DNA from: an uncultured Nitrososphaerales archaeon
Lineage (GTDB): Archaea > Thermoproteota > Nitrososphaeria > Nitrososphaerales > Nitrososphaeraceae
Length of the DNA: 64,000 bases
Assembly (NCBI GenBank): GCA_963713605.1
Contig: CAVQMO010000001.1
Span: forward strand, 1,088,001-1,152,000
Direction of reading: 5' to 3'
The notes below the pieces were generated by a model. It saw only the letters and a program-made list of their open reading frames with translations. It ran no database searches and was not told the origin of the DNA. This document shows, in pieces, positions 1-4,905 of the stretch. Position 1 is the stretch's first letter; every line of letters starts with the position of its first letter. The position numbers were made by a program, and so were the translations under genes.

Positions 1-3000
1 GCTTTCGACAGCGCATCGTGAAAACTTGACCCAAAACAGGCTACTTCCCCTGTAGATTGCATTTCGACACCAAGGACAATATCTGCACCCTCGAGCTGCC
101 ATAAAAGAAAATTGAGGAACTTTTATGCCGAAACCGGACTTTCTTAACCAACTGTCGCCACGATCGACAGGCAGTTTTCTTCCCATCACGGCTTGGGCCG
201 CCAGTGAAATTAGATTTATGCCTGTAAATTTTGATACGAATGGCATTGACCTAGAAGCCCGGATGTTGGCTTCTATCACGAACACCTGGCCTTCCTTTAC
301 CAAATACTGTATATTGAAAGGTCCTATTATTTTCATCGCCACTCCAATTCTTTTGCTGTATTCAGTGATCGTTTCTATAGTTTCTCTGTCTAACCTCCAA
401 GGAGGAATGCACATCATGGCGTCTCCCGAGTGTACACCAGCGTTGTCGATATGTTCGATAACTGATCCAATTACAACGCTTTGTCCGTCTCCCACTGCAT
501 CAACCTCCACTTCTGAAGCGTTTTCCAAAAACTTTGTCATAACAATTGGGTGATCAGGGCTTATGTTAGTAGCCTCAGTCAAGAATTTCTTCAATTGCTC
601 AGGGGTCCAGACAACTTTCATTGCAGCACCGCTAAGCACATAAGAAGGTCTAACGAGTAGAGGGTATTTCACTATTTCTGCAAATGATCGAGCTTTATTT
701 AAGCTCGTGAATTTTTTCCAAGCTGGCTGTTTTATACCCAAAGAATCAAGCAGGATTCCGAACTTAGATCGATCTTCAGCCTGGTCCACACTCGCGGCAG
801 ATGTTCCTATGATGTTGATATTCGCAGAAGCTAACCTTGGAGTTAGTATATTTGCAGTCTGGCCCCCAACGCAAGTCACTATCCCATCAGAATTTTCTCT
901 TTCGCAAATGTCCATTACTCTTTCAAATGTTAGTTCTTCGAAATACAAGCGGTCGCAAATATCGTAATCGGTGGAGACAGTCTCAGGGTTACAATTTATG
1001 ATTATGACTTCCTTGCAACCATTGTCTTTTAGGCCCCAAACCATATTAACAGTGCCCCAATCAAATTCTACACTGCTACCTATCCTGTATGGTCCTGCGC
1101 CTAGGACTATCACCTTTGAAGGCACACCCCTAGCTCGGGGCTCGCTAGCCTTCATATTAGGTATTAATGTCTTACCCTTTCTTTTTAAATCACAATGAAC
1201 GTCATCAAATTGACCGCCGTAAGTGAGATAAAGATAGTTGGTCCTTGCTGGCCATTCAGCAGCTAAAGTATCAATTTGTTTGGTAACAGGCAGGATCATC
1301 AACTTCTTTCTTAGTAATCTAACATCGATCTCGTCGATGTTCGAGCAATTGGCAATTTGGACGTCTGAGAATCCCATTTTCTTTGCTTCGAGTAATGTAT
1401 TCTTATCGAGACTTGAAGTTCTCAGCTTTTTCTCAGTCATGATTATTGTTTGTATCTTGTTTAGAAACCAAGGATCTATTGATGAAAGCGAGTTGACACG
1501 TTTCACTGACATGCCTATCTTCAATGCTCTAACCACATCAAAAAGGATCTCGTCTGTCGGATGCAATAGAGCTTGTTCGAGTGATTCAATCTCGTAATTT
1601 CCTATACTATTATTACTATCACTATTACTGTTACTATTACCACTATTACTATTGGTATTACTATTCTTAATACCAATTCCCATAGATGAAGATAAGTGCC
1701 CTAAAGAGGTAACTGGTTGGGAATTTACATCAGGACTAGGTAGATTACTCTTGTTTTCCGCCCAATTTGGATCCAAGGCATTATTCGAATCAATTCGCTC
1801 TCTCCGTTTTGACGTCAGAAGCGGCTTTCTCTGTTGCATTAGATTATTTGTCCCATAACTTTGATCATCGGTAACGAATGTAGAAAAATTATTACCGTCT
1901 GACCCATCATTATCATTCCTAGAATTGGAAACAAGGCCATGTTTTCCATTGTCGCACATTCTCACTGCCTTTTGAAGTACCTCTTCAAAACTCCTACCAA
2001 TCGCCATAACCTCTCCAACTGATTTCATTGTGCTGCCCAGTCTCTTTTTTACCAATTCAAATTTCTTGAAATCCCACCTAGGCATCTTCAGTACAATGTA
2101 GTCCAATGAAGGCTCAAAGCATGCTGTTGTAGCTTTCGTGACAGTGTTAACTAATTCAGGGAGTGAGTATCCTAAACTTACCCTTGCGGCCATGTATGCT
2201 AACGGATATCCGGTAGCCTTACTGGCCAATGCGGAGGATCTAGATAACCGCGCATTTACCTCGATAACACAATAGTTTTCTGAACTGGGGTCAAGCCCGA
2301 ACTGAATGTTGCACTCCCCAATGATATCACATTTCTTGGTGGCTTTCAGTGCGGCGCTGCGAAGTGTATGATATTCGTAGTTGTTTAGTGTCTGTGAAGG
2401 AGCCACGACTATGTTATCCCCCGTGTGAACCTTCATAGCTAAAACATTCTCCATATTACATACAATTACACTGTTTCCATGGTGGTCTCTCATCACTTCA
2501 TATTCAATCTGCTTCCAAGATCCTACATATTTTTCAATTAGAACCTGTCGAACTACGCTAAGAGCAAGTCCTCGCTGTACTATCTCCTGTAACTCATAAT
2601 CATTGTAGGCAACACCGCCGCCTCGTCCACCCAGTGTATATGCAACCCTTATGATTACCGGATATCCTATTCGCTCAGCAATTTGTTGGGACTCTTCAAT
2701 GGAGTTCGCTGATGAGCTTTCAAGAACTGGAAGCCCACATTCAACCATTCTATCTTTGAAAAGTTGTCTATCTTCGGTGGTTTGAATACCGTGAATTTGA
2801 GTGCCTAATACCTTTATTCCATATTTCTTGAGGATCCCATTCTTCTCCAACGCAACGCCACAGTTTAAGGCTGTCTGGCCTCCAAAGCTCAACATTATAG
2901 AATCTGGGCGTTCGAGTTCGATTATGCTAGTTACATATTCAAGGTTAACGGGCAAGAGATATACTCGATCCGCAAATCTGCTATCGGTTTGAATAGTCGC

Positions 3001-3181
3001 AATATTTGGATTGATTAATAGAGTGTTTATGTTATCTTCCCTTAACGCTTTGAGGCATTGAGAACCAGAGTAATCGAACTGGCGGTCTTCGTTTTACCGA
3101 ATGACTTTCGCCTGCTTCTCCGATCTTAATTGCCCCGCTACCAAGGACTAGAACTTTCTTGATATTTTCATGTTTTCCCAA
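1..3181 (-). CDS. carB: Carbamoyl-phosphate synthase large subunit; 3' end outside window; predicted join(3181..3107, 3078..<1) after removal of a 28-nt intron
   Basis: Manual translation from TTG at 3181 (GGAG just upstream): [57 protein letters not shown]. The second-half motif [21 protein letters not shown] lies at ~1040-1120. It is directly downstream of carA. It is missing from the ORF track because it is interrupted and runs off the window. Confidence 0.97.
3079..3106 (-). other. Putative bulge-helix-bulge(-like) mRNA intron in carB, 28 nt (AGUCAUUCGGUAAAACGAAGACCGCCAG)
   Basis: mRNA reads GCA-GGCG-AA^A-GUC-A-UUCG-GUAAAA-CGAA-GAC-CGCC-AG^U-UCGAU. This gives a 4-bp GGCG/CGCC helix with 3-nt bulges AAA and AGU. 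Cutting after the second nt of each bulge gives GGC GAA UUC GAU (G-E-F-D) in frame. Confidence 0.85.
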
Positions 3182-3513: not shown

Positions 3514-4905
3514 TCAATGAGTTGCTGTCAGATTGTAATAATTCTTGATAATGTCTCTGAATTTTTCAAAGACAAACATACAATCATATGGCCCTGGTGA
3601 AGCCTCAGGGTGAAATTGTACGCCGATGATAGGTTTGGTATTATGTTGAATGCCTTCTACGGTTTCGTCATCGGGATTATAAAACCAAGTAGTAAAATCT
3701 GTTTTCTGTAGGCTCAACGTATCTATTCCATAGCCATGATTTTGACTCGTTATGTAGGTAGTATTGTCGTTTTTGTCGATGCAGGGTTTATTTTGACCTC
3801 GATGGCCATATTTTAGCTTGTATGTTTTTGCCCCGGCCGCAAGTGCCAGAATCTGATTACCAAGACAGATACCTAAAGTTGGTATCGATTCTTCAATTAA
3901 TCTTTTGGCCGTGTTGATAGTTGCTGAGCAAATCTCTGGGTCGCCTGGTCCGTTGCTTATAACGACCCCAGCTGGATCATAAGCCTTAAGAGAATCATAT
4001 TTAGTGTCCCAAGGTAGCCTGACTACTGAGAATCCCAGCGATAAGATGTTACGGACTATACTAAATTTCGTTCCAGTATCTAGTAGAACTATTCTCTTAG
4101 TGCTGGAGCTTTTGATATCTTCGACAGCAGGATCATAAAACTTGACTGCTTCAGTCGAAACCTCGGGCATAAAGTTTACTCCCTCATAACTTGAACCTTC
4201 AAGACGCTCTTTAATCCTTGGCAAATTCAACCTGATCCCCCGGGCTGTTGCCCTTATTTCCCCGTCAACTGCAACAGGCTTTCGAGCCTTCTTTGGACTA
4301 CCTATTGCCTCGACGTTTATAGCACCCATCATCACTCCATGCGATCGAAGTCGTTTGGTTAATTCACGGGTATCAACTCCATATATCCCAGGTATCTTTT
4401 GATCGTATAGCCATTCATCAAGGGTCCTAATAGAACTCCAATGACTAGCACTAAATGAAAGATTCTGAACAATCAATCCTCTGACCTGAATGGACATAGA
4501 TTCGAAAAATCTAGGAAGTCCAAATTGATCTTTCAAGTTGAAATCAGGGACGCCATAATTTCCAATCAATGGATATGTTAAGCATAAGATTTGGCCTCTG
4601 TAAGAAGGATCCGTTAGTGTCTCAGTATATCCTACCATACCTGTGTTAAAAACTACTTCCCCTTCCATATACGTTGGGAACCCAAAGCCGATGCCTCTCA
4701 TCGTCAATCCATCCTTCAACACAAGGTATCCCGTAAGCTTAGAATCAGACCCTATCAGATTGGTGAAATTTGAACCCTTCAGCCAATTTGAATTGACGAG
4801 ATTTAAACTTTCTTGTTGAAAATGATTACCGTAGGCATTGCACGGGATTAAATAGCCAGTTTCTAACCATGGTTCTGTAGCTATCAGAGACCGAACCAAA
4901 CTCAC
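3514..4905 (-). CDS. carA: Carbamoyl-phosphate synthase small subunit (glutamine amidotransferase); true start may be downstream of 4905
   Basis: Motifs GEVVFNTGMVGY, LTDPSYRGQI, SNGPGDP, LGICLGNQ (catalytic Cys), GHRGQNKP and QFHPEASPGP. Confidence 0.97.
   Translation of the reverse strand: MSLVRSLIATEPWLETGYLIPCNAYGNHFQQESLNLVNSNWLKGSNFTNLIGSDSKLTGYLVLKDGLTMRGIGFGFPTYMEGEVVFNTGMVGYTETLTDPSYRGQILCLTYPLIGNYGVPDFNLKDQFGLPRFFESMSIQVRGLIVQNLSFSASHWSSIRTLDEWLYDQKIPGIYGVDTRELTKRLRSHGVMMGAINVEAIGSPKKARKPVAVDGEIRATARGIRLNLPRIKERLEGSSYEGVNFMPEVSTEAVKFYDPAVEDIKSSSTKRIVLLDTGTKFSIVRNILSLGFSVVRLPWDTKYDSLKAYDPAGVVISNGPGDPEICSATINTAKRLIEESIPTLGICLGNQILALAAGAKTYKLKYGHRGQNKPCIDKNDNTTYITSQNHGYGIDTLSLQKTDFTTWFYNPDDETVEGIQHNTKPIIGVQFHPEASPGPYDCMFVFEKFRDIIKNYYNLTATH

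Follow-up and report, generated by a model that had tools for sequence, protein, structure and literature searches.

The DNA analyzed here (the window) is a 64-kb stretch of an uncultured Nitrososphaerales genome, labeled G000, that carries the carB gene on its minus strand with carA directly upstream (Table 1). An earlier reading of the letters alone (the original prediction) proposed that 28 extra nucleotides interrupt carB and are removed from its mRNA by the tRNA-splicing machinery as a bulge-helix-bulge (BHB) intron. Inspection of the sequence confirmed the 28 extra nucleotides at 3106-3079, which separate the Glu and Phe codons of the IGEAGE-FDYSG motif of CarB, with FDYSGSQC resuming at position 3078 in a frame other than that of exon 1. 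The junction Glu may have a role in the carbamate tunnel; a literature search gave no confirmation of this, and it was not used in the analysis.

Read without splicing, the open reading frame (ORF) from TTG 3181 ends at TAA 3034-3032 after 49 amino acids, and the insert itself contains a TAA (3096-3094) in the downstream frame, five codons before the junction; both stops are present as originally described. Deletion of 3106-3079 restores the frame and the conserved motif. The resulting Gly-Glu-Phe-Asp junction is the one that had been proposed, although two other 28-nt registers also yield it by way of another Glu codon, and GEFDY survives three 37-nt deletions that sacrifice three residues. 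Alignment of exon 2 with Escherichia coli CarB (1bxr_A) begins at the first exon 2 residue and at CarB residue 26 (E = 5e-127), and the start region LGKHE/LGKDE is common to all eight genus genomes displayed. The second half of CarB reads an uninterrupted VEFDW at the equivalent site, as had been noted.

Table 1. Features of the carB locus, in window coordinates
Feature	Position	Strand	Evidence or remark
carA (small subunit)	3514..4905	minus	ORF and carA motif match; immediately upstream of carB, same strand
carB exon 1	3107..3181	minus	25 codons; start TTG 3181; IKIGEAGE at its end
Exon-exon outer stem, 5' arm (Ile-Gly-Glu codons)	3118..3124	minus	Fold, covariation, synonymous-site constraint
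Central helix, 5' strand (4 bp), in exon 1	3109..3112	minus	Pair probability 0.99-1.0; covariation
3-nt bulge with predicted 5' splice site	3108-3106	minus	Directly after the 5' strand of the central helix
Predicted intron, 28 nt, bulge-helix-loop/BHB type	3079..3106	minus	Fold, covariation; missing from two RNA-library contigs
Intron contents	Inner stem 3105-3103 with 3087-3085, hairpin, central-helix 3' strand 3084-3081, TAA 3096-3094	minus	
carB exon 2	1..3078	minus	First residue equals E. coli CarB 26; continues beyond the window edge
Exon-exon outer stem, 3' arm (Tyr-Ser-Gly codons)	3064..3070	minus	Fold, covariation, synonymous-site constraint
Extra base in carB exon 2	99..100	minus	Frameshifts the C-terminal ~185 codons; absent in 5/5 genus relatives; position counted from ORF

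An interrupted frame of this kind might simply mark a pseudogene or a split gene from which a truncated CarB is made at a downstream start. An ORF of at least 985 codons does begin at TTG 2955, a further frameshift lies near window position 100 in this assembly, and early stops in exon 2 were found in 10 of 136 genomes whose loci were fetched and parsed (a chosen, non-random subset). However, a second intact carB, which the original prediction had named as the sign of a pseudogene, was sought by tblastn, and a single carB was found in G000, a genome 87.5% complete in which a second copy could be missed; the remaining matches were the internal duplication of carB and weak ones of ~24% identity. 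Over exon 1 and the 41-codon stretch ahead of the first downstream start, codon differences from G000 summed over 13 genus genomes are 174 synonymous versus 22 non-synonymous, which argues for purifying selection and, therefore, for translation of both as CarB. The first downstream start is scattered from codon 8 to codon 61 (with one at 258) across 89 genomes, exon 2 is open to 1145-1176 amino acids past the junction in five of five genus relatives, and early stops occur in intron-less genomes too (G229 and G077). A pseudogene or split gene is therefore highly improbable. The break near 99-100, missing from the account in the original prediction, is probably an assembly error.

Exon 2 also encodes an Asn/Ser-rich low-complexity stretch of ~130 residues (window about 1580-1970), the length of which probably varies, given the spread of exon 2 sizes among the genus relatives.

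A first search recovered 30 loci, of which 29 were parsed, and all 29, including those of 14/14 genus genomes, are interrupted by an insert between the same two codons; the thirtieth, that of G016, has an insert of 23 nt. Two patterns were run across the 401 genomes of the order: the motif with a 0-30-nt gap allowed was present in 309 genomes, and a slightly shortened version that required a gap of 10-40 nt was present in 225, which were scored as insert-bearing. Genomes without a match include incomplete ones and motif variants. By the latter pattern, inserts are present in 98 of 111 genomes of G000's own family, 71 of 112 of family f13, 40 of 97 of f10, and all 9 of f4, with no match in f7 (13 genomes), f9 (11), f12 (10), f15 (15), or f19 (6). 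Sampling beyond the order found such an insert at this site in 3 of 257 genomes (counted regardless of whether they had a matching carB). A set of 80 named loci comprised 44 with the insert, 33 without it, and three that were unparsed, one of these being intron-less. The insert-bearing records are labeled Nitrososphaera, Nitrosocosmicus, Nitrosopolaris, Nitrosotalea, Nitrosotenuis, Nitrosarchaeum, Cenarchaeum, and some Nitrosopumilus and Nitrosopelagicus; the Nitrosocaldus record and the Bathyarchaeia-labeled records in this set have none. The tallies include two unpublished genomes (G013 and G286), and the conclusions are independent of both. Alignment of the relatives, which had been suggested as a check, revealed structured inserts of variable length at one codon boundary. 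That the insert is an artefact of this assembly, which does contain scattered one-base errors, has a negligible chance of being correct, given that it recurs in hundreds of independently assembled genomes.

Twelve metagenome loci were also inspected; the intron is present in all nine genus-like ones, and one of the 12 is intron-less. A 2.5-kb contig labeled Heimdallarchaeota (L242) has a carB junction and a 21-nt intron identical to Nitrosopumilaceae ones, and is likely misbinned.

Inserts were found in 89 of the 136 parsed genomes, at lengths of 17-32 nt and in all three phases; longer inserts of 38, 48, and 52 nt contain an extra A/T-rich loop and bring the overall span to 17-52 nt. In every insert-bearing genome (89/89) the reading frame is blocked, and each of the 38 inserts of in-frame length holds a stop of its own. 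Such inserts could in principle be left in the RNA and skipped by the ribosome, either by programmed frameshifting or by a hop of the T4 gene 60 type, and a hairpin with a nearby stop after the take-off codon is indeed found in many alleles. Gene 60 bypass requires matched take-off and landing codons, but none of the 29 inserts of the first search ends in a triplet that matches the Glu take-off codon, no single frameshift fixes three phases and lengths of 17-52 nt, and contigs without the insert are present in RNA libraries (see below). Ribosomal skipping can accordingly be given only a very slim chance. A self-splicing group I or II intron, whose catalytic RNA core takes up hundreds of bases, was also considered and was ruled out by the 17-52-nt length (Rfam was not searched).

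Folding of the 86-nt junction region gave a free energy of -26.9 kcal/mol (z = -3.27), and none of 200 shuffled sequences was equally stable. In the G000 ensemble, the central 4-bp helix and the inner stem of the original prediction were recovered with pair probabilities of 0.99-1.0, and only 46 of 200,000 shuffled inserts satisfied the same criterion of 4 + 3 pairs. The 5' site has the structure expected for cleavage, with a 3-nt bulge to be cut after its second base and an intron stem that closes it. The 3' side had been described as a 3-nt bulge closed by an A-U pair, and this part of the description did not stand: the A-U pair has an ensemble probability of 0.0 in G000, and across 76 distinct junctions the closing position is A-U in 47, G-U in 3, and a non-pairing C-U in 26. 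The 3' side is thus an internal loop closed farther out. By contrast with the A-U closure, the outer stem formed between the two exons is kept, with a mean probability of >0.5 in 91% of 88 distinct junctions and 89.3% of cells paired, and the motif is therefore a bulge-helix-loop (BHL), in which the 3' splice site lies in an internal loop closed by the more distant exon-exon stem. The suggestion that this side is relaxed and BHL-like was, to that extent, sound.

This structure is maintained among relatives. All four pairs of the central helix can form in 76 of the 89 insert-bearing genomes and three of the four in the other 13, and at least three inner pairs form at a fixed register in 89/89. 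In a covariation alignment of 20 hand-picked diverse sequences, from which the structure itself was derived, 93.6% of cells are paired and both-side changes occur at 5 of 14 pairs, including two of the four in the central helix. The observed value was reached by 0 of 500 shuffles, a control that relatedness alone may beat, and slid partners gave 25-52%. Two individual events are the clearest. In G025 and G026, from two families, a synonymous change of the Gly codon is accompanied by a matching change in the intron. In three genomes beyond the order (G542, G572, and G578), a Gly-to-Ala substitution in the exon changes the helix at two positions, with a corresponding change in the intron.

The three loci from beyond the order (L165, L166, and L167) have inserts of 19-28 nt at the same carB site, with the helix fitted to a Gln-Ala-Ala-Glu exon; these may have arisen by a separate insertion or may descend from an old intron held in common.

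Synonymous codon use in the exons was compared with one genome taken per genus and state. At the 11 junction codons, the commonest synonymous codon had a mean frequency of 0.79 in 37 intron-bearing genera versus 0.47 in 16 intron-less ones, whereas at 15 distant codons the values were 0.49 and 0.49, respectively. The synonymous sites that flank the junction are constrained only where the intron is present. Within genus g39, the helix-forming Gly codon is used in 8/8 intron-bearing alleles and 0/12 intron-less ones; within genus g29, it has been kept in 5/5 intron-less alleles.

Four of 23 listed RNA runs (X1, X2, X8, and X9) were examined as contigs. In X1, a 151-nt contig (depth 3) lacks the 28 letters at 3079 and differs from the window at one other letter; in X2, a 175-nt contig (depth 2.3) lacks the same 28 letters and differs at three others. 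The gap in both contigs is in the register predicted from the motif, and the two junctions share no direct repeat. A further X2 contig, from a more distant organism, joins exon 1 straight to exon 2, and the same organism, matched by a common upstream loose end, is found in X8 with the intron. No contig of the G000 genus spans the junction in X8 or X9, X9 being without junction coverage. The RNA-library contigs thus lend splicing thin support.

Several observations weigh against the insert being a spliced intron. The exon 1 side of the X1 and X2 contigs measures only 24 and 28 nt, below the 31-nt bridging rule, and the gapped contigs are shallow, come from two of the four runs, and derive from one study. 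The libraries carry no strand information and may contain DNA, and no circular-intron joint is listed among the RNA contigs. Intron-less DNA alleles exist in the same family, in five of five checked genomes of genus g29. A strictly canonical BHB, in which an outer helix would abut and close a second 3-nt bulge, is not formed, the 3' bulge being non-canonical, and the 48-nt insert of G168 has only two inner pairs at the fixed register. Because related genomes are not independent samples, significance is exaggerated by the covariation and codon counts, and in the G000 assembly both rtcB and the carB C terminus contain one-base frameshifts. Also on this side is L203, a contig from a metagenome collection (~84% like genus g2) that has an intron-less junction between synonymous flanks of the intron type; the molecule type is unstated, and L203 may represent either a transcript already spliced or an allele that lost the intron recently.

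On the strength of the low depth, the single study, and the short exon 1 overhangs, together with the intron-less alleles of the family and L203, it could be argued that the intron is real in DNA but that the gapped RNA contigs reflect skipping of the hairpin by reverse transcriptase or DNA of an intron-less strain. Direct evidence of splicing would then be gone and the comparative case unchanged. This explanation is quite unlikely: the gap falls exactly at the predicted cut sites with no direct repeat to promote a skip, all but one of the 151 letters of the X1 contig match the window, the intron is present in 14/14 genus genomes and 9/9 genus-like loci, and the distant organism lacks the insert in X2 and has it in X8.

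Two EndA-family genes are present in G000. Residues 22-198 of one product align to 3p1z_B (E = 3e-44) and 3ajv_B, with both a GIDH stretch and the N-terminal segment that bears the loop included; the second protein lacks the GIDH His stretch. We take the GIDH-bearing protein to be the catalytic subunit and the other, which fits that role, to be the structural subunit. The rtcB gene has one extra base at G000:C1:154230-154240 (L063/L064), probably also an assembly error, and is intact in five of five genus relatives. By sequence, then, the host encodes both a heteromeric EndA and RtcB. Heteromeric crenarchaeal EndAs cut a tRNA-free mini-BHL RNA that homomeric euryarchaeal ones do not (PMC2724299).

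The rtcB break was itself entertained as a candidate intron and was dropped, as it has no good motif and consists of one extra base only.

These data can be accommodated by the following minimal mechanism. The carB gene would be transcribed together with its short intron, and the last Gly-Glu codons of exon 1 would pair with the 3' end of the intron to form the 4-bp helix. The 5' splice site would then lie in the 3-nt bulge and the 3' splice site in the internal loop, with the exon-exon stem juxtaposing the exons. The two-subunit EndA would cut at 3107/3106 and 3079/3078, RtcB would ligate the exons, and full-length CarB would be translated, unspliced mRNA yielding only the 49-residue peptide. 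We infer that EndA and RtcB are the agents of cutting and joining and that splicing is largely constitutive. Taken together, the single carB, the conserved structured inserts, the RNA contigs without the 28 nt, and the two-subunit EndA support the central claim of the original prediction, and it is very probable that the carB insert is an mRNA intron of relaxed BHL form spliced by EndA and RtcB.

The history of the intron was followed on a quick tree of exon 2 proteins (125 of 139, with 14 omitted for short open frames), a tree that contains several weak branches and one row with a partial frameshift. Intron presence requires at least 13 changes on this tree, and intron-less rows are nested in intron-bearing clades in f10, f9, f1 g29, and f13. 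Repeated exact loss, which has also been proposed for the intron of cbf5 (PMC2738675), would be the simplest reading, and intron-less alleles may alternatively have given way to regain by recombination. The intron appears to be old within Nitrososphaerales and to have been precisely lost several times, and the repeated intron-less lineages show that it is dispensable. As the intron beyond the order fits a different exon sequence, introns may have entered the carB site on more than one occasion. No long nuclease-bearing insert was found in the 10 genomes that had escaped the DNA patterns; of these, five were parsed as intron-less, G028 was intron-less on inspection, G168 has its 48-nt insert, G207 gave no N-terminal match, and two gave no carB match. 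No insert exceeded 52 nt within the 380-nt search at the junction. The upstream ORF is carA in seven of eight loci, the eighth (G016) having an ORF without assigned identity. A mobile intron driven by a homing endonuclease would have a nuclease gene inside or beside it; the inserts found are too short to contain one, in a search that did not extend to the downstream flanks or elsewhere in the genomes.

A genome-wide scan of G000 for similar introns returned 1452 raw matches, 264 of which passed filters, with carB ranked fourth. No convincing second intron was evident among the best 40 of the 264, judged in G000 only; the scan is best regarded as unspecific, and other introns may exist. Two 17-nt BHB-shaped candidates from the scan lie at G000:C10:721897-721913 and C1:865166-865182, both on the minus strand. 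None of the cbf5, rnhB, gatE, and radA motifs is interrupted in G000, and the patterns for pcm and pyrB had no match there. A radA-like motif with a 355-residue frame is repeated on three contigs (C2, C12, and C13), which suggests duplicated or contaminating segments. At G000:C1:843294-843312 (minus strand), a frame break, probably another one-base error, interrupts a putative ribosomal protein S4 gene.

Cleavage of the cbf5 intron has reportedly been shown biochemically, whereas the case for the carB intron here comes from sequence data. In eukaryotes, an endonuclease and a ligase remove a short frame-changing intron from XBP1/HAC1 mRNA in a non-spliceosomal, stress-regulated reaction. The predicted carB intron is likewise short, frame-changing, and non-spliceosomal; the XBP1/HAC1 system differs in its nuclease, its eukaryotic host, and its established stress regulation, regulation of carB splicing being hypothetical. 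Splicing of XBP1/HAC1 mRNA by IRE1/RtcB is named in PMC13149111.

Within archaea, the literature searched yielded cbf5 as the only spliced coding sequence and no description of a carB intron, in line with the original prediction; subscription journals and supplements fell largely outside that search, and strain genome or proteome tables could mention one. The available portions of PMC12397907, PMC3082918, PMC13149111, and PMC12558985 do not mention it. Schwarz et al. (2020) give cbf5 as the only earlier archaeal mRNA intron and add a case in a 5' untranslated region (UTR) (PMC7714728), and Yokobori et al. (2009) mention predicted but unconfirmed cases in Sulfolobus genomes and a rudivirus (PMC2738675). 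The cbf5 intron of Desulfurococcales and Sulfolobales (16-44 bp, with secondary losses in some lineages) resembles that of carB (17-52 nt) in being short, in lying inside a conserved coding motif, in its often relaxed motif, in hosts with heteromeric EndA, in being too short for a nuclease, and in its lineage losses (PMC2738675). It differs in that cbf5 encodes an RNA-modification enzyme and carB a central biosynthetic one, in that the hosts of the carB intron are mainly ammonia-oxidizing archaea and their relatives, and in position, the cbf5 intron lying inside a catalytic codon and the carB intron between two codons. HVO_1309 of Haloferax volcanii similarly contains an EndA substrate within an mRNA, from which 46 nt are removed; its intron, however, lies in the 5' UTR and is independent of frame, and its circular RNA and in vitro cleavage have been reported (PMC7714728). 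With the BHB/BHL introns of archaeal tRNAs the carB intron shares helix-bulge geometry and cut positions and, presumably, enzymes (PMC12397907 and PMC2724299). Unlike them it lacks a tRNA body, and its outer stem, made of coding exons, limits synonymous sites.

The carB intron, which on the features examined matches the relaxed form of the cbf5 type, extends a kind that has one coding-sequence member in the searchable literature. Arginine and pyrimidine synthesis most likely depends on carB mRNA splicing in this organism and in many ammonia-oxidizing archaea, as the original prediction had held for this genome. Gene callers blind to such introns would be expected to clip CarB in these genomes. 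Intron-bearing and intron-less alleles within one genus provide natural controls with which intron loss, the cost of splicing, and possible regulation could be approached. It is conceivable, although unlikely, that splicing is conditional in ammonia-oxidizing archaea, along the lines of the control point raised in the original prediction, with tRNA-endonuclease activity serving as a switch that links carbamoyl-phosphate supply to growth or nitrogen state; this would give archaea an equivalent of regulated, non-spliceosomal splicing of mRNA. If carB is indeed spliced, the known range of mRNA splicing would include a gene of core biosynthesis, in archaea of a widespread group.
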